From Candidatus Omnitrophota bacterium (GTDB lineage: Bacteria > Omnitrophota > Gorgyraeia > Gygaellales > Profunditerraquicolaceae), in contig JBAXLM010000002.1 of the NCBI GenBank assembly GCA_037134795.1, positions 1-60,055 of the forward strand: a stretch of DNA of 60,055 bases, given 5' to 3'. The notes under the pieces are model-generated. The model searched no databases, had not been told where the DNA came from, and saw only the letters and a list, made by a program, of their open reading frames with translations. Made by a program: the position numbers and the translations under genes. Shown here in pieces: positions 47,311-55,649 of the stretch. The stretch's first letter is position 1. Each line of letters opens with the position of its first letter.

Positions 47311-48052
47311 AGCTCAAGGATTACTCTTAATCAGAAGGGATTTCCGGGAAACCTCAATTATCGCGGAATTTTTTACCAAAGAATTCGGTAAAATCAGCGG
47401 CCTGCTAAAAGGAATACGCACTCAACCGGAAAAATTCGCCTCAAATCTAGAGCCATTCTCTCTAAATGAGATCATCTTTTATAGAAAAACACACTCATCA
47501 TTGCATCTAATAAGCCAGGCAGACAAATTAGATAACTTTACCCGCATACGGCAAAGTTTAGAAAAAACAACCATGGCCTCATTTATGATGGAGCTAGTTG
47601 CTTCGGTAATGCAGCCAGAAGATATAAATGAAGAGATATTTAACTTAAGCCTTTCCAGCCTTAAAGAATTAGAGACTAACTATAATCCTAATAAAATTAC
47701 AACCATATTTAAAATTAAAATGCTCGCGCTTTCCGGGTTTAAACCACACTTTGATTCTTGTGTATGCTGCTTGGATAAAATCATGGGGCAATCTAAATTT
47801 AGCCTTGCTTTAGGAGGCTTACTTTGCCCGCGTTGCATGCAAAAAGATCCAACTGCTCGCGCTATATTCCGCGGAACTGTTGCTACCATCCTGCATATTG
47901 AGAGAAACGATTTCCGCACCAGCCTTAATTTAGGGCTTAACCCTATGATAAAAAAAGAACTGGATCTGATTTTAAACGCATTCTTAAATTTTCATTTAGG
48001 AAAAGAATTAAAATCCCAAAAACTTTTGGATAAACTGGAGGTAGGGATATGA
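47297..48052 (+). CDS. recO: DNA repair protein RecO
   Basis: N-terminal OB region (AQGLLLIRRDFRETS.I...FT.EFGKISG), Cys4 zinc finger CVCC...CPRC. Start at the ATG at 47297. Confidence 0.85.
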   Translation: MSIDKAQGLLLIRRDFRETSIIAEFFTKEFGKISGLLKGIRTQPEKFASNLEPFSLNEIIFYRKTHSSLHLISQADKLDNFTRIRQSLEKTTMASFMMELVASVMQPEDINEEIFNLSLSSLKELETNYNPNKITTIFKIKMLALSGFKPHFDSCVCCLDKIMGQSKFSLALGGLLCPRCMQKDPTARAIFRGTVATILHIERNDFRTSLNLGLNPMIKKELDLILNAFLNFHLGKELKSQKLLDKLEVGI

Positions 48053-48975
48053 AAATTGTCATTGTAGGCCCAGGGGCAATGGGATGCTTATTTGGCGCTT
48101 TCTTATCAAAATCAAAAGAAGAAATTTGGTTATTAGATAAATTTAAAGAACGCGCGGCGAAAATTAACGAAAACGGAATATCTTTAGAAGGCGTATCCGG
48201 CAGTTGGCAGGCAAAAATTAAGACGACAGCTAACCCGCAAGATATTGGCACTAGCGACTTAATACTTATCTGCGTAAAATCTTTCAATACTAAACAAGCT
48301 ATAGAACAAATTATGCCTCTACTGGGCAAAAACACTAAAATATTAACACTACAAAATGGCATAGGCAATATTGAAGTTATCGCTGAATTAACCGCGGAAG
48401 ATAGAGTGATTGGAGGAGTAACCAACGAGGGAGCTACCTTAATTGATATTGGGAAAGTCCACCATGCAGGAAGAGGACAGACAATTATCGGAATGATTGA
48501 CGGCAAAACCCCGGTTGAGATGCGTGGAATTCGCGAGATATTTAACAAGGTTGGTTTTGATACCAAGATGTCCCGCGATATAAAAAGCCTTATCTGGAGT
48601 AAGTTAATTATTAATGTAGGCATCAACGCTTTAACTGCAATTACTCGTTTACCGAATGGGAAACTTACTGAATTCGAAGGCACTAAACGCATCTTGCGAG
48701 ACGCGGTTACGGAAGCCGCGCGCATCGCAAAAAGAAAACGCATAAAATTAATTTACGACGATCCTTTAGCAAAGGTAGAAGCGGTTTGCGAAGGGACATC
48801 TGCTAACCTTTCCTCAATGCTTCAGGATGTCTTAAAAAAGAAACGCACAGAAATTAATTTTATTAACGGCGTAATTGTCCGGCTTGGCCAAGAATTAGGC
48901 ATTGACGTACCAACAAACAAGTTTTTAGTAGATCTGGTCAAAACAATCGAAACCAGTTACGCACAATCTGTGTAG
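48049..48975 (+). CDS. panE: 2-dehydropantoate 2-reductase
   Basis: MKIVIVGPGAMG Rossmann motif, conserved K (WSKLIINVGINALTA), SMLQD. Confidence 0.85.
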   Translation: MKIVIVGPGAMGCLFGAFLSKSKEEIWLLDKFKERAAKINENGISLEGVSGSWQAKIKTTANPQDIGTSDLILICVKSFNTKQAIEQIMPLLGKNTKILTLQNGIGNIEVIAELTAEDRVIGGVTNEGATLIDIGKVHHAGRGQTIIGMIDGKTPVEMRGIREIFNKVGFDTKMSRDIKSLIWSKLIINVGINALTAITRLPNGKLTEFEGTKRILRDAVTEAARIAKRKRIKLIYDDPLAKVEAVCEGTSANLSSMLQDVLKKKRTEINFINGVIVRLGQELGIDVPTNKFLVDLVKTIETSYAQSV

Positions 48976-49090
48976 ACAGTGTACGTAAGCGTTTAACAGC
49001 ACACTAGTTATGAAACAAATATTTGGGTAAGAGAAAAAGGTATTTGTTCTGTAACTAACTGTGCTGCAATATGTTGCGTACACTGTCTAC
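48972..49090. repeat. 119-nt imperfect palindromic element with 14-bp perfect terminal inverted repeats
   Basis: GTAGACAGTGTACG (48972-48985) pairs with CGTACACTGTCTAC (49077-49090). Inner paired blocks are CAGCACA/TGTGCTG, TAGTTA/TAACTA and GAAACAAATA/TATTTGTTC, around a purine-rich ~19-nt loop. It contains the panE stop codon and the first ATG of the apbE ORF. Confidence 0.8.
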
Positions 49091-50042
49091 AATACTTATG
49101 GCTTATAGTAAAAGAAATCGTAAATATTTATTGGTGTTACTGATAGCCGGATGGGCGATCACTTTAGGCTACAAACATTTTTCCCTCCGGATACCTGAAA
49201 AACATTTATATCATGACAACCGCATTCTTATGGGTACATTCTGGGAGGTTACATCCCCGGAAAAACAAGCAAGCGCGATTGTTTTCGCAGAAGTTGAGCG
49301 CCTTGAACAACTGTTTAGCAAATATATCCCGACAAGTGAAGTATCTGTACTTAACCGTGCGGGAAAATTAAAGGTAAGCCCCGATACATTTTATATTATA
49401 AAAAAATCAAAAGAATTTTACCAGCTTACTGATGGCGCATTTGATATCTCAGTCGCTCCGCTTGTTGAGCTTTGGGGGTTTTCTAACCTTAAAACAAAAG
49501 TACCTACTATAGAAGAAATCAACTCCACCCTTAAAGTAATAGGAAGTGATAAAATTATTTTGCATGAAAATGATTCTATGGTAGAATTTAAGCTTCCTGA
49601 AATGAAAATCGACCTTGGCGGGATAGCTAAAGGATACGCGTTAGATTGCGCAATAAAGAAGCTTAAGGAGAATAAAATTAACAGTTGCCTTATTAATGCC
49701 GGCGGACAAGTTTATGCTTTAGGAAATAAATTCTCTTCACCCTGGAAGATCGCGATCAAAAATCCGCGTAAGCCTGCTGTTTTAGAAACGCTGGAATTAA
49801 ATAATCAATCCGCATCTACCAGCGGAGATTACGAACAGTTTTTTTTAAAAGATGGAAAACGTTACTGTCACATTATAAACCCTAAAACGGGTTACCCTGC
49901 AGATACACAGATTACTTCTGTAACTATAATTGCAGATCAAGGCTTAACTGCTGATGTTCTATCTACAGCAATATTTGTATTAGGCAAAAAAAGAGGGGAA
50001 GCTTTAGCTAAACAATTTACTAATATAGAAATTAAAGAATGA
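49071..50042 (+). CDS. apbE: FAD:protein FMN transferase (ApbE family); the start may be the ATG at 49098
   Basis: N-terminal hydrophobic anchor. MGT, FDISVAPL, DLGGIAKGYA, STSGDYE...HIINP.TG motifs. Confidence 0.85.
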   Translation: MLRTLSTILMAYSKRNRKYLLVLLIAGWAITLGYKHFSLRIPEKHLYHDNRILMGTFWEVTSPEKQASAIVFAEVERLEQLFSKYIPTSEVSVLNRAGKLKVSPDTFYIIKKSKEFYQLTDGAFDISVAPLVELWGFSNLKTKVPTIEEINSTLKVIGSDKIILHENDSMVEFKLPEMKIDLGGIAKGYALDCAIKKLKENKINSCLINAGGQVYALGNKFSSPWKIAIKNPRKPAVLETLELNNQSASTSGDYEQFFLKDGKRYCHIINPKTGYPADTQITSVTIIADQGLTADVLSTAIFVLGKKRGEALAKQFTNIEIKE

Positions 50043-51328
50043 ATTACCTGCCTAAGAAATTTATCTTCCTTTACTACATCATCAATCTACCGGTAATTGA
50101 TTCACTTACCGGAAAGAAGATCGGCCGCGTTATTGACCTAGCCGCGACACTTAAAGAAATGTACCCTAAAGTAACCGGATTGATTATGCGTAATAAGAAA
50201 AATAAAAAGATTTATCTACCCTGGAACAGCGTAAAAATGCTGGTGGAAGAAAAAGGGATTTTTATTGAAAATTTTCTGGCTGTCGCGCAAAATGAATTTA
50301 ACCCAAAAGAAAATGAAATCCTGCTTAAAGAAACTTTTTGGGATAAACAGATAGTCGATATTCACGGTTCAAAGGTAGTCCGCATTAATGACCTGCATCT
50401 TTTAAGAGAAGGGCTGGACTTTTGGGTAGTGCATATGGATATTGGCATTACCGGATTACTACGCAGGTTAGGTTGTATCAAAATATTCGAGTTCATTATA
50501 AAACTTGTTTCTTCATATGAAATGGAAGACAGGATTATTTCGTGGAAAGATGTTCAGCCAATAAACGGGCCTATAGGAAACGATGCCTTATCTTTAAAAG
50601 TGCACCATTCAAAACTAGCGGAATTGCATCCGGCTGATATCGCCGATATTATTATTGACCTTGGCACGGAAGAAAGGCTGAATATTCTTAGGTCTATGGA
50701 TAAAGTTACAGCTGCTAACACTATTCAGGAATTACCCTTAAAAGTACGCTTACAGGTTGCCGAATTACTTGACCAAAAACTCCTTGCGGAAATTATAAAT
50801 GAAATGGCTATCGACGAAGTGGTGGATTTATTCTCACAATTGCCTAAAAAAAGAGTTTCTGTGTTATTTTCCCGTTTATCGCAGGAAAAGGTTGCACAAA
50901 TCTCTAGTTTACTCAGCCATGATGATGATATAGCAGGCAGTATTATGAACACTGACTTTATTTGCGTCAAACACAGTATGAGCGCGGCAGCTGCTTTAGA
51001 AAAAACAAAAAAAGAATCCACGCGGAAAAAAGAATCCTATTATATTTACGTGCTTGATGATACTGATTTACTGGTAGGAGTGATAACTTTACAACAGCTG
51101 CTTACAGTTGCCCCGGAAAAAATTGTCTCTGAATTCATGCGTAAACGCATTGCTAAAGTAAAAATAAAAACAAAAATTAAAGATGTGGCTGAGGTTTTCT
51201 ATAAATACGATTTTACGGTTGTGCCGGTAATTGACAAACTCGGAAAAATCCAGGGGATAATTACAATGAAGGACGCCTTTGAATCAGTATTTCACCAGAT
51301 CCGCAAAGAAACGGAACAGACACAATGA
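50039..51328 (+). CDS. Soluble PRC-barrel / MgtE-N / CBS-pair protein (MgtE cytoplasmic module without the channel domain)
   Basis: MgtE_N-like segment LAELHPADIADIIIDLGTEERLNILRSMD, then two CBS-like repeats (IMNTDFICV..., VVPVIDKLGKIQGIITMKD). No TM segments. The stop overlaps the downstream transporter start (ATGA). Confidence 0.7.
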   Translation: MNYLPKKFIFLYYIINLPVIDSLTGKKIGRVIDLAATLKEMYPKVTGLIMRNKKNKKIYLPWNSVKMLVEEKGIFIENFLAVAQNEFNPKENEILLKETFWDKQIVDIHGSKVVRINDLHLLREGLDFWVVHMDIGITGLLRRLGCIKIFEFIIKLVSSYEMEDRIISWKDVQPINGPIGNDALSLKVHHSKLAELHPADIADIIIDLGTEERLNILRSMDKVTAANTIQELPLKVRLQVAELLDQKLLAEIINEMAIDEVVDLFSQLPKKRVSVLFSRLSQEKVAQISSLLSHDDDIAGSIMNTDFICVKHSMSAAAALEKTKKESTRKKESYYIYVLDDTDLLVGVITLQQLLTVAPEKIVSEFMRKRIAKVKIKTKIKDVAEVFYKYDFTVVPVIDKLGKIQGIITMKDAFESVFHQIRKETEQTQ

Positions 51329-52605
51329 AACTTTGGGATAAAATAAAAGAAAAACCGATAATTCGAAACCTGATAATATTTCTCGCTGTCCTAGGGCCAG
51401 GAATCGTCACCGGTAGCGTAGATAATGACGCCGGAGGAATTACTACCTATTCGGTTGCCGGAGCAATCTTTGGCTATAAACTTTTATGGACACTCATCCC
51501 GTCTTTTATAATTTTAGCAGTAGTCCAGGAAATGAATGCCCGAATGGGAATTGTTACCGGCAAAGGCTTAGCTGACCTTATCCGGGAAAATTTCGGGGTT
51601 AAAATTACATTTTTTATATTCTTAGGGCTGCTTGCCGCGGATATCGGAAATACCGCAACAGAATTTGCCGGCGTAGCCGGAAGTATGGATGTCTTTGGAA
51701 TAAGCAAGTATGTCTCAGTGCCCCTAACCGCATTTGCCGTATGGATACTCGTAGTAAAAGGAAACTACAAAACCTCAGAAAGAATATTTTTGCTTTTTAG
51801 TTTTTGCTTATTATCTTATATCGTATCCGCGATCCTTGCCAAACCAGATTGGCATCAAATCAGTGCGGCTATTATAAAACCAGCTATGCATATAAATAAA
51901 GAATATCTGGGCATGATTTTAGGTATTGTGGGAACCACCATTGCTCCCTGGATGCAATTCTATATGCAATCGGCAGTTATCGAAAAGAGGATCAAAATAG
52001 AAGATTATAAATTTGTCGTAGCTGATGTAATTATTGGATGTATCGCGACAGTAGTCGTAGCATTCTTTATTATTGTCGCATGTGCCGCGACATTGCATCA
52101 AAACGGAATAGTGATAAATGAAGCTCGCGACGCAGCAATAGCCTTAAAACCATTTGCCGGTATATTTGCTTCACAATTATTTGCCTTTGGATTATTTGTT
52201 GCTTCGGTATTTTCAGCGACAATTCTTCCTTTAGCTACAGCATTTTACGTCTGCGAGGCGTTTGGCTTTGAAGGGGGAATAAATAAAAAAATAAATGAAG
52301 CCCCGCAATTCTACGCCCTATTCACCTTTATTATTCTGTTTTCCGTAATTATTATCCTCATACCTAATGCGCCGCTGATTACCATAACCATCTGGTCACA
52401 GATAATCAATGCCATGCTGCTGCCTATAGTACTTATCTCCATGATCACCATGGTGAATAATAAAAAGATTATGGGAAAATACACTAATAACAAATTTCAA
52501 AATAGCGTGGGCTGGCTGACTACTATAATCCTGATCGCGCTAACGATTATGCTTATAGTTTCACCATTAATAAATTACCTGCACAAATTTTTCCTTAGGA
52601 ACTAA
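51325..52605 (+). CDS. NRAMP/SLC11-family transporter with an NRMT-like (Mg2+-type) binding-site signature
   Basis: 426 aa, ~11 TM helices. The TM1 motif reads D-A-G-G (codons 51427-51438) where canonical NRAMPs have D-P-G-N. The TM6 motif reads G-T-T-I-A-P-W (51931-51951) where canonical NRAMPs have G-A-x-x-M-P-H. Confidence 0.75.
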   Translation: MKLWDKIKEKPIIRNLIIFLAVLGPGIVTGSVDNDAGGITTYSVAGAIFGYKLLWTLIPSFIILAVVQEMNARMGIVTGKGLADLIRENFGVKITFFIFLGLLAADIGNTATEFAGVAGSMDVFGISKYVSVPLTAFAVWILVVKGNYKTSERIFLLFSFCLLSYIVSAILAKPDWHQISAAIIKPAMHINKEYLGMILGIVGTTIAPWMQFYMQSAVIEKRIKIEDYKFVVADVIIGCIATVVVAFFIIVACAATLHQNGIVINEARDAAIALKPFAGIFASQLFAFGLFVASVFSATILPLATAFYVCEAFGFEGGINKKINEAPQFYALFTFIILFSVIIILIPNAPLITITIWSQIINAMLLPIVLISMITMVNNKKIMGKYTNNKFQNSVGWLTTIILIALTIMLIVSPLINYLHKFFLRN

Positions 52606-52606
52606 A

Positions 52607-53443
52607 ATGGACGCTAGAATTACTGTTGATAAAATTATTTCCTTAAAAAACAAGCGCAAAATCACCATGCTTACTGCTTACGATTACCCAATCGCAAGCT
52701 TAGTAGACAAAGCAGGAATTGATATAATTCTCGTGGGAGATTCCCTGGCTAATGTTGTGCTGGGATTGGAATCCACGACTCAGGTGGGAATGGCGGAAAT
52801 GTTGCATCATGCTAAAGCTGTTACCCGCGCCGTAAAAAACAGCCTGGTTGTCGGGGATATGCCTTATGATTCCTATCAGATAAATTCAAATGAATGCGTG
52901 AAAAACGCTAAAAGATTTATCCAGGAAGCTAACTGCCAAGCAGTAAAATTAGAATGGTTTGAGCATTGTTTAGAGGTAACTGAACAGATTATTAACGCGG
53001 GCATACCTGTAATGGGGCATATCGGATTAACTCCCCAAACTGTAGACAAAATTGGCGGCTTTATTGTACAAGGTAAAAACGCAGAAGCGGCCAGAAAATT
53101 AATAAATCAAGCGGTAGAGCTCCAGAAGAAGGGATGCTTTGCCATTGTTTTAGAGTGCGTCCCGGATAAAATTGCCGAACTTATCACTAAAAAGATAAGC
53201 ATTCCCACCATTGGCATTGGAGCAGGAGTAAATTGCGATGGCCAAGTCTTAGTTATCAACGATATGCTCGGGCTTTTCCAAAGATATACACCGAAATTTG
53301 TTAAAAAATATATTGATCTTGCGGCGTTAATTTCAAAAGCTTTAGAAGATTTTAAAAATGAAGTCTCCTTAGAAAAATTCCCTACTCACGAACACTCTTT
53401 TACTATTCCAGAAGAAGAGCTTAAAAAGATAAATGAAAACTAA
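52607..53443 (+). CDS. panB: 3-methyl-2-oxobutanoate hydroxymethyltransferase
   Basis: ITMLTAYDYP, LVGDSL, VKLE, IGIGAG..CDGQVLV motifs. Confidence 0.92.
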   Translation: MDARITVDKIISLKNKRKITMLTAYDYPIASLVDKAGIDIILVGDSLANVVLGLESTTQVGMAEMLHHAKAVTRAVKNSLVVGDMPYDSYQINSNECVKNAKRFIQEANCQAVKLEWFEHCLEVTEQIINAGIPVMGHIGLTPQTVDKIGGFIVQGKNAEAARKLINQAVELQKKGCFAIVLECVPDKIAELITKKISIPTIGIGAGVNCDGQVLVINDMLGLFQRYTPKFVKKYIDLAALISKALEDFKNEVSLEKFPTHEHSFTIPEEELKKINEN

Positions 53444-54179: not shown

Positions 54180-54207
54180 TTGACACCCGTAATTTATACT
54201 ATATAAT
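54180..54207 (+). promoter_or_regulatory. Consensus sigma-70 promoter of the PilZ-PilT gene
   Basis: TTGACA (54180-54185), 16 nt spacer, TATAAT (54202-54207). GGAAGGAG Shine-Dalgarno ahead of the TTG start at 54264. Confidence 0.7.
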
Positions 54208-54263: not shown

Positions 54264-55649
54264 TTGTTTACATTCGGAGCAAATAAAAGAGAAAATTACC
54301 GTACTTTTTTAAATATTCCCTTTACCTTTGATAAAACTGATCCGCTAAGTAAAACGGTTACTACTAAAACCCAGATCATCAGGGATATAAGCGAAGACGG
54401 CTTATACTTTACATCGGATGAGGTTTTTCCGCTTGGTACGGAATTAAAAATTAAATTTCAACTTCCAAATAACGATACTATTATAAACGCAACTATAAAA
54501 GTGTTGCGAATCGAAACACCTGAATTAGAAAAATTCAACATCGGGGCATGTTTTTCCTCTATCAGCGAAATAGATAAAGAGAGAATAAAAAAACTGATTG
54601 AACGCATAAATATTAATAATTTACTGGGATTAGCTATTAAAAATAATGCCTCTGATTTACACCTACTTGTAAACCAATCTCCGATTATACGCGTTGACAG
54701 CGAACTTGTAGCTCTTGAGATGCAGCCATTTTTGCCGGAAGAAATCAAACAATTACTTTATAGCATAATGAGCAAGCAGCAAATCGCGGTATTTGAAAAA
54801 GATAAAGAGCTTGATTTTGGAATACAATATGATACGCGAACCCGCTTCCGCGTTAATCTACATCAACAAAAAGGTTTTCTCGAAGCCGCCTTTAGGTTAA
54901 TAAACACAAGAGAATTTTCCTACGAGGAACTGAATATTCCCAATGTTATAAAAGACCTTACCAGGCAGAGGGAAGGATTAATCCTGGTAATAGGGCCAAC
55001 AAGCTCAGGGAAAAGTACTACAATTTCGGCAATGGTTGATCTAATTAATCACGAAAGAAAAGCAATTATTGTTACTTTGGAAAGGCCCATAGAATATGTG
55101 CATACTAACATAAAAAGCATTATTAAGCAGCGAGAGGTAGGAATAGATACCAATTCTTTTGCCTCTGCCATAAAAAGCACTTTAAGGCAGGATCCTAACA
55201 TAATAATCGTCGGAGAGCTGGACGACATGGAAACCATCGGTACCGCTTTGATCGCCGCGGAAGCAGGGTATTTAGTTATCGCTTCCTTTCATGCTCCCAG
55301 TACCATCCAGTCAATAGACAGGCTGGCAAATATGTTTCCGCCAGATCATCGCAAAAAAATCTTAAACCAAATATCTGGATGCCTTAATGCGGTAATTTCC
55401 CAATTATTAATACCTAAAATTAATAAAAAAGGAAGAGTCCTGGCTTGCGAGATACTCATCGCTAATGATGCAGTCAAAAGAAATATCCGTAAGGATGAAT
55501 TATCTCAGATCTCTAATATTATACAAACAGGCAAAGCCTTCAAGATGCAATCAATGACAGAATCAATTACGAAAATTTACGAAGATGGAATTATCGATGG
55601 AACGACCATGGAATACTATACAAAAGAAACTAAAGATCTTCACGAATAA
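54264..55649 (+). CDS. pilT: PilT-family type IV pilus retraction ATPase with an N-terminal PilZ domain
   Basis: PilZ motifs RENYR (RxxxR) and DISEDG (DxSxxG) in the first ~110 aa. Then a full PilT: ASDLHLLVNQSPIIRVD, Walker A GPTSSGKSTT, Walker B IIIVGELDD, and the AVKRNIRKDELSQI..IIQTG signature region. Confidence 0.85.
   Translation: MFTFGANKRENYRTFLNIPFTFDKTDPLSKTVTTKTQIIRDISEDGLYFTSDEVFPLGTELKIKFQLPNNDTIINATIKVLRIETPELEKFNIGACFSSISEIDKERIKKLIERININNLLGLAIKNNASDLHLLVNQSPIIRVDSELVALEMQPFLPEEIKQLLYSIMSKQQIAVFEKDKELDFGIQYDTRTRFRVNLHQQKGFLEAAFRLINTREFSYEELNIPNVIKDLTRQREGLILVIGPTSSGKSTTISAMVDLINHERKAIIVTLERPIEYVHTNIKSIIKQREVGIDTNSFASAIKSTLRQDPNIIIVGELDDMETIGTALIAAEAGYLVIASFHAPSTIQSIDRLANMFPPDHRKKILNQISGCLNAVISQLLIPKINKKGRVLACEILIANDAVKRNIRKDELSQISNIIQTGKAFKMQSMTESITKIYEDGIIDGTTMEYYTKETKDLHE

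Follow-up and report, generated by a model that had tools for sequence, protein, structure and literature searches.

NRAMP-related Mg2+ transporters (NRMTs) are a fourth class of bacterial Mg2+ importer. In the operons that have been described for them, most NrmT genes adjoin a gene that shares homology with the cytoplasmic domain of the Mg2+ channel MgtE, often under the same M-box riboswitch; cytoplasmic feedback regulation by this MgtE-like fragment was proposed in the same study, with "metal chaperone activity" as the named alternative (Shin et al. 2014, PLoS Genet 10:e1004429, PMC4072509). EleNRMT of Eggerthella lenta has been characterized as a proton-uncoupled Mg2+/Mn2+ transporter, in which a role has been demonstrated for D55, G58, T224, A227 and Q379, and mutation of T224, a residue critical for Mg2+, ends Mg2+ transport and spares Mn2+ transport (Ramanadane et al. 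2022, eLife, PMC8806188). That paper does not discuss a partner protein, Cellier 2022 makes no mention of MgtE or CBS, and our literature search found no paper joining MgtE, PRC-barrel and CBS. Here we describe a pair of this kind in a Candidatus Omnitrophota bacterium, within a stretch of 60,055 nucleotides (contig JBAXLM010000002.1, positions 1 to 60,055; hereafter the window), where a gene for an MgtE-like fragment, which we call the partner (50039..51328, forward strand), directly precedes an NRMT gene (51325..52605, forward strand). The best-supported reading of our analysis, and one that we hold to be probable, is that the partner acts as a cytoplasmic, Mg2+-dependent feedback brake on an uncoupled NRMT carrier.

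The transporter, a protein of 426 amino acids, matches positions 1-356 of the 357 positions in the Nramp profile (PF01566, SLC11/Nramp fold) with an E-value of 5e-97. Its top match among all solved structures is EleNRMT (7QIA; E 8.6e-112, 377 bits), to which it aligns without gaps over residues 7-415, whereas its best MntH match stands at E 3e-27 and 99 bits, and all MntH, DMT and NRAMP structures, including the Mn2+/Fe2+ transporters, score no more than 99 bits. The NCBIfam MntH model likewise gives 158.7 against a cut-off of 430. An earlier reading made from the sequence only had assigned the protein to the NRMTs by a DAGG motif in transmembrane helix 1 (TM1) and a GTTIAPW motif in TM6, and both motifs are found as described. 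The TM1 motif, D33-N-D35-A-G-G38 (51421..51438, forward strand), places Gly at the position of the Asn in DPGN and aligns gap-free to 7QIA, D35 and G38 being the counterparts of EleNRMT D55 and G58. In the TM6 motif, G203-T204-T-I-A207-P-W (51931..51951, forward strand), Thr replaces Ala and Ala replaces Met, as in EleNRMT (T204 equals T224, and A207 equals A227). With the helix-10 Gln (Q359, EleNRMT Q379), all five functional-site residues of EleNRMT are identical in the transporter. The same signature, DAGG followed by GTT[IV][ACT]PWM, is present in 68 of the 68 partner-linked transporters whose motif region was fully aligned, and by this sequence comparison the motifs lie well beyond chance. 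Placement relative to the Mn2+/Fe2+ NRAMPs was based on bit-score separation and on the site residues; since EleNRMT is the top match and the functional residues are identical, the assignment to the NRMT clade is solid at the level of sequence.

The partner is a soluble protein of 429 amino acids in which two PRC barrels are followed by an MgtE_N domain, a CBS pair and a C-terminal helix. Its best solved relatives by sequence are MgtE cytosolic domains (2YVY, E 1.7e-29), and the same family leads the Foldseek search, in which 2zy9, 2yvy and 8gps are matched at E ~1e-20 with a template modelling (TM) score of up to 0.93. An AlphaFold2 (AF2) model built on 34 homologues (predicted local distance difference test, pLDDT, 80) arranges the chain as two beta-barrel domains, a disordered linker (176-193), a helical N domain, the CBS pair and the C-terminal helix. 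The first PRC barrel covers residues ~8-76 (50060..50266, forward strand; Pfam PRC E 4e-5, AF2 and Foldseek) and reaches the Pfam cut-off (PF05239, residues 9-72) when the N-terminus is scanned alone, at 23.9 versus 21.2 bits. The second, with a helical hairpin insert, spans residues ~93-174 (50315..50560, forward strand) by alignments, AF2 and Foldseek. It is recognized by fold only (AF2 pLDDT 87; Foldseek tandem match to 8qzo) and is the most conserved part of the partner, with the motif KVVR[VI]NDLH and invariant D102, Q104, G110, R115, N117, D118, H132, R143, W169 and K170. Folded alone, residues 1-178 form a compact and confident AF2 model (pLDDT 87, predicted TM-score 0.81), for which Foldseek returns CdpB1/CdpB2 first (8qzo, E 7e-5, 140 aligned columns), followed by the reaction-centre H subunit (RC-H), RimM and single PRC proteins; an ESM Atlas look-up of the N-terminus gives generic PRC-barrel clusters only. 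The MgtE_N domain occupies residues 196-297 (50624..50929, forward strand; Pfam E 2e-21, with the same coordinates in the genome profile search) and the CBS pair residues ~300-416 (50936..51286, forward strand; two Pfam CBS domains). In the AF2 model the C-terminal helix, residues 410-428 (51266..51322, forward strand), takes the place that the plug helix has in MgtE.

The partner ends at the point where TM1 of MgtE would start. Its alignment with 2YVX runs as far as chain residue 274 (251 in native numbering), some 30 residues short of the pore domain, and it has no TM-like segment, the highest 19-residue Kyte-Doolittle mean being 1.32 with no such segment above 1.6. The MgtE membrane domain (PF01769) has no match in the partner or in the genome. 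The partner scores 142.8 bits on TIGR00400, below the cut-off of 232.75, and covers profile positions 23-252 of 450; lacking in addition the five-helix pore domain, it is therefore not an MgtE channel. The domain reading proposed from the sequence only, a PRC-like N-terminus, an MgtE_N domain and a CBS pair with no membrane domain, thus holds, with the refinement that the PRC barrels are two.

The Mg2+ ligands of Thermus thermophilus MgtE (TtMgtE; Maruyama et al. 2018, PMC5882242) were mapped onto the partner through a HMMER alignment and their conservation counted over the 34 homologues. Five of the six cytosolic-domain ligand positions that fall within the alignment are kept, and these are mostly conserved across the family: D91 (site Mg4) corresponds to D259 (Asp in 28 of 34), D95 (site Mg6) to D263 (Asp in all 34), D247 to D412 (Asp in 28 of 34) and D250 to E415 (Glu in 26 and Asp in two), with D226, matched by D391, as the fifth. 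Two plug-helix ligands lie outside the aligned region. The alignment past residue 416 is approximate, and by it the conserved acidic residues E424 and E426 on the C-terminal helix fall near the positions of TtMgtE E258 and D259. The Mg2+-sensing apparatus of MgtE is thus largely preserved in the partner.

The association of the two genes was followed from both sides. A search based on the partner found relatives in 147 species-level genomes, from which 80 loci were kept. An NRAMP homologue stands beside the partner in 70 of these, directly downstream on the same strand in 68 and upstream on the opposite strand in two; the remaining ten comprise eight loci cut by a contig end and two true exceptions, so that the NRMT gene is present in 70 of the 72 loci with enough flanking DNA. 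The reverse search, based on the NRMT motifs, found the transporter in at least 598 genomes. In the best 80 loci, which include Bacteroidota, Ignavibacteriota, Clostridia, Bacilli, Nitrospirota, Acidobacteriota and Desulfobacterota, a full-length partner with both PRC barrels lies directly upstream in 76, three have no upstream DNA, and one is a true exception (76 of 77 with enough DNA). In a sample of 121 Omnitrophota genomes, NRMT was found in ten, each time with the partner adjacent. Where flanking DNA suffices, ~97-99% of loci have the two genes adjacent, in both directions and in more than ten phyla; their association is nearly obligatory, and the conservation on which the sequence-only reading had been made to depend is borne out. 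Overall, partner and NRMT pairwise identities correlate with r = 0.82.

In the window the two genes share an ATGA start/stop overlap (51325..51328, forward strand), exactly as first read from the open reading frames, and this 4-nt overlap suggests translational coupling. Junctions in related loci comprise 14 with a -4 overlap, six with -1 and 12 with gaps of 0 to +5. Those of Omnitrophota, Elusimicrobiota and Spirochaetota are -4, -1 or 0 to +5 nt, and partner-NRMT gaps in Thermodesulfobacteriota measure 46-376 nt; overlap is common among relatives and not universal. As a separate observation, four genomes of another Omnitrophota family carry the reversed order, NRMT first (L085, that is G036:C2:196000-200200, and G038, G044 and G118). 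Their NRMT is a deep branch with 35% identity and the same DNDAGG and GTTIAPWM motifs, a 449-aa PRC, MgtE_N and CBS partner follows ~220 nt past it, and CorA is also present in these genomes.

The tandem-PRC module is found outside this pairing as well. Its profile matched 2122 representative proteins at E up to 0.001, most of them 415-450 aa long; some of 593-656 aa join two PRC barrels, MgtE_N and CBS domains to an MgtE membrane domain. None of eight full-length PRC-type MgtE proteins from Ktedonobacteria (~600-680 aa, e.g. Dictyobacter alpinus; L174, L176, L177, L189, L196, L200, L232 and L236) has an NRMT gene within ~3 kb, and one form from Actinomycetota (L206), a 626-aa reading frame with a TM tail, lies 1 nt upstream of an NRMT gene. 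Because the module heads full-length MgtE, the partner corresponds to a PRC-type MgtE's entire cytoplasmic half. A role of the tandem PRC as a docking adaptor specific to NRMT was considered and rejected in that form, as the module also heads full-length MgtE with no NRMT nearby. An apparent PRC-containing MgtE in a genome of the same genus (G095) proved to be a read-through artefact, the gene being a canonical 450-aa MgtE.

The genome itself offers a simple background for this pair. In its assembly (1.28 Mb in 91 contigs, 92.5% complete), profile searches gave no match to the MgtE pore (PF01769), CorA (PF01544), MgtA (TIGR01524) or the M-box (RF00380), and counted one Nramp protein, the NRMT; one MgtE_N protein, the partner; and one CNNM/CorC-type protein. 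The gene for the last (G000:C8:25848-26390, reverse strand; PF01595 E 5.5e-55) encodes the one further Mg2+-related transporter that the genome was found to contain. The pair therefore seems to be the only recognizable route of Mg2+ entry into this cell. In the 121-genome sample, seven of the ten NRMT genomes lack both CorA and MgtE, and seven of the 12 genomes lacking both carry NRMT (Fisher's test, p ~1e-6, to be read as descriptive only, since related genomes are not independent). As NRMT tracks the absence of CorA and MgtE, it looks like a replacement Mg2+ route in these Omnitrophota lineages, a pattern that argues for Mg2+, and not Mn2+, as the physiological substrate here. Searched against Rfam, the window gave no family at or above its gathering score, and positions 47900-50300, scanned by E-value, contained no M-box. 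The start of the partner gene overlaps apbE (49071..50042, forward strand) by ATGA, which leaves no room for a leader, a riboswitch or an upstream mini-ORF; a control that responds to Mg2+ would therefore have to be exerted on the protein.

We propose that the NRMT, a LeuT-fold carrier, brings in hydrated Mg2+ (and Mn2+) down the membrane potential and without proton coupling, as its homology to EleNRMT predicts. A carrier that is uncoupled and driven by the potential needs a brake, like the channels CorA and MgtE (the rationale follows PMC4072509 and PMC8806188), and the homologous cytosolic module of MgtE is an inhibitory sensor (PMC5882242). The partner would supply all the cytoplasmic parts of a PRC-type MgtE channel, plug-like helix included, with no pore. 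This module would lock into a compact state that restrains the carrier, and with falling Mg2+ it would relax, so that uptake could resume. The physical contact between the two proteins, the binding of Mg2+ by the partner and the direction of the regulation are the steps that we infer. As CorA, an MgtE channel, MgtA and a Mg2+ riboswitch are all missing from the assembly, the pair may represent both the sole recognizable entry route for Mg2+ and its sole visible control.

Several findings weigh against this feedback brake. When the A. capsulatum partner was co-expressed with its transporter in B. subtilis, no added Mg2+ rescue was seen (PMC4072509), and both CabNRMT and EleNRMT transport without a partner (PMC4072509; PMC8806188). 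Among the mapped ligands, TtMgtE E59 (site Mg7) corresponds to N227, a variable and not conserved position, and the position of D226, Asp in the partner (D391), is Asp in 16, Asn in 11 and Gly in seven of the 34 homologues. A tightly co-evolved interface is argued against by the locus of G033 (L084, G033:C8:217600-221200), a genome from another Omnitrophota family, where the NRMT is 76% identical and a partner of the same architecture only 29-31%, an indication that lineages of partner and transporter can be exchanged. No NRMT-partner fusion was found in a search for longer proteins, a weak form of negative evidence. Finally, another Mg2+ importer could sit in the unassembled 7.5% of the genome. 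We also put forward, tentatively and with somewhat more doubt than trust, a wider form of the proposal: that the tandem-PRC MgtE sensor serves an unrelated LeuT-fold carrier as a gate that is non-covalent and detachable, that the two together are the sole Mg2+ route and homeostat in reduced genomes devoid of CorA and MgtE, and that the module is portable, acting on its own MgtE pore in Ktedonobacteria, on NRMT elsewhere, and on both in forms like L206.

Of the other explanations, the one that survives best, although we find it unlikely, makes the partner a positive or auxiliary factor, either a Mg2+ chaperone or buffer at the inner vestibule of the carrier or a stabilizing subunit for full activity in the native host. 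The chaperone named as an alternative in 2014 (PMC4072509) belongs here, near-obligate synteny suits any functional partnership, and the acidic sites could hold Mg2+ for delivery. Yet the NRMTs that have been tested work alone in heterologous cells and liposomes (PMC4072509; PMC8806188), the related MgtE module inhibits (PMC5882242), and with free Mg2+ in the millimolar range a chaperone seems unnecessary.

We give little credit to a system that handles mainly Mn2+, or both ions, with a partner responding to Mn2+ or another divalent ion. The invariant T204, counterpart of the Mg2+-critical T224 of EleNRMT, speaks against it, as do the lack of any other recognizable Mg2+ importer in the genome and the way in which, among the sampled genomes of the phylum, NRMT follows the joint absence of CorA and MgtE. 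Its best precedent is the A. capsulatum homologue ACP_2977, a protein with an adjacent MgtE-like gene that acted mainly as a Mn2+ transporter, rescuing a Mn2+-transport mutant fully and a Mg2+-transport mutant weakly (PMC4072509); EleNRMT also carries Mn2+ (PMC8806188).

A further candidate signal is the adenine nucleotide. In TtMgtE the CBS domain binds ATP, which adjusts the Mg2+ sensitivity of that protein (PMC5529423), and two of the contacts are kept in the partner and its family, TtMgtE Y170 as Y335 (32 of 34 homologues) and the stacking Phe F227 as F392 (33 of 34). Three others are changed, R187 and D188 both to Gln and the adenine-reading N203 to Arg; within the homologue family, Arg stands at the R187 position in 22 of 34 and at the N203 position in 20 of 34. 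The nucleotide pocket is thus only partly preserved, and it is improbable that the CBS pair senses ATP or Mg-ATP, coupling uptake to the energy state instead of, or besides, free Mg2+. Mere adjacency, with no direct functional coupling and a partner that acts on another target, would fit the lack of fusions and the presence of the same module on stand-alone MgtE channels with no NRMT nearby, but it is very hard to reconcile with 97-99% adjacency across more than ten phyla, frequent start/stop overlap, two gene orders and a partner in which Pfam recognizes no DNA-binding or enzymatic domain, and we regard it as highly improbable.

The surroundings of the pair are compact. The genes panE (48049-48975) and panB (52607..53443, forward strand) bracket the block, panB beginning 1 nt past the NRMT stop codon, and the placement of the pair between panE/apbE and panB agrees with the first reading of the open reading frames. 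The block lies in a long run of genes read in one direction and contains neither a terminator-like nor a strong promoter-like signal; the order panE-apbE-partner-NRMT-panB is also found in close Omnitrophota relatives. A link of the pair to pantoate genes occurs in two distant phyla, in the Omnitrophota clade and in nine Thermodesulfobacteriota loci with the order partner-NRMT-panE(-panB) (L054, L057, L063, L065, L066, L070, L076, L078 and L080), and was not seen in the Bacteroidota, Clostridia and Chloroflexota loci examined. Between panE and apbE, a long perfect hairpin (48971-49091) drew only sub-threshold Rfam matches to microRNA precursors, which reflect the hairpin itself and not a known RNA family. 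Placed upstream of the genes apbE-partner-NRMT-panB, the hairpin may act as a terminator or attenuator, or may be a repeat element. Beyond the block, a 12/12 sigma-70 consensus (TTGACA, 16 nt, TATAAT) at 54180-54207 precedes a PilZ-PilT gene at 54264; the 8 kb scanned contained no second perfect match.

Companion reading frames and longer forms of the transporter were also sought. In 148 loci the DNA downstream of NRMT contained no conserved small hydrophobic open reading frame, and the gaps that separate partner and NRMT in Thermodesulfobacteriota contained none either. The proposal of a conserved membrane microprotein next to the NRMT is not applicable to this clade, and the window offers no space for one. 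In the fusion search, the partner query gave no longer protein and the NRMT query gave six, none with MgtE_N or CBS domains: four have only Nramp stretches by Pfam, and the two others carry unrelated Pfam families. Among long NRMT-like public proteins, P0121 and P0122 (806 and 944 aa) have Nramp stretches in two or three copies, which points to transporters arranged in tandem or duplicated in part; in P0125 (853 aa) the Nramp domain is preceded by ~470 N-terminal residues without a Pfam match.

Compared with known systems, the locus is of the known NRMT operon type, and neither the pairing nor the idea of regulation is new, both having been published in 2014. It shares with the nrmT operons of Shin et al. 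(C. acetobutylicum Ca_c0685; A. capsulatum ACP_2976/2977) a gene for the MgtE cytoplasmic domain that immediately precedes one for an NRAMP-related transporter, and the proposed role in cytoplasmic feedback regulation. It differs in having neither an M-box nor any leader, with a partner that overlaps apbE; an upstream M-box is found in many of those loci, though not all, and does not define them. The fragment gene of C. acetobutylicum is split, whereas the partner here is encoded by a single 429-aa gene. What our analysis adds is that the genome has no other recognizable Mg2+ importer in its assembly, that the MgtE ligand positions are mostly kept, and that the tandem-PRC module is not NRMT-specific.

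The transporter is closest to EleNRMT (PDB 7QIA/7QIC/7QJI/7QJJ), sharing the D, G, T, A and Q residues of the site and the same length class, hence the same number of TM helices. About half of the residues differ, the transport activity of the Omnitrophota protein is predicted, and EleNRMT was characterized without any partner protein. On the side of the partner, the likeness to the T. thermophilus MgtE cytosolic domain (PDB 2YVY/2YVX/2ZY9/5X9G) extends over the N domain, the CBS pair and the following helix, with a TM-score of up to 0.85-0.93 on the target and counterparts for D91, D95, D226, D247 and D250; the partner differs by lacking the pore domain and the E59 site and by ~190 extra N-terminal residues that form the two PRC barrels. 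These barrels (residues 1-178) share the PRC protein-protein docking fold of archaeal CdpB1/CdpB2 (PDB 8QZO), RC-H and RimM, at 14-16% identity; the biology of those proteins is unrelated (cell division, photosynthesis and ribosome maturation), and the resemblance is one of fold only. The locus represents no new kind of system; its value lies in being a clean natural example, as searches of this small genome found neither CorA nor an MgtE channel, MgtA or riboswitch. Should the partner prove to be a gate, the pair would show that the sensor domain of a channel can regulate an unrelated carrier in trans. The entire cytoplasmic architecture of the partner, tandem-PRC module included, is shared with full-length PRC-type MgtE (~595-656 aa), from which it differs in that these proteins carry their own PF01769 membrane domain and the partner has none.

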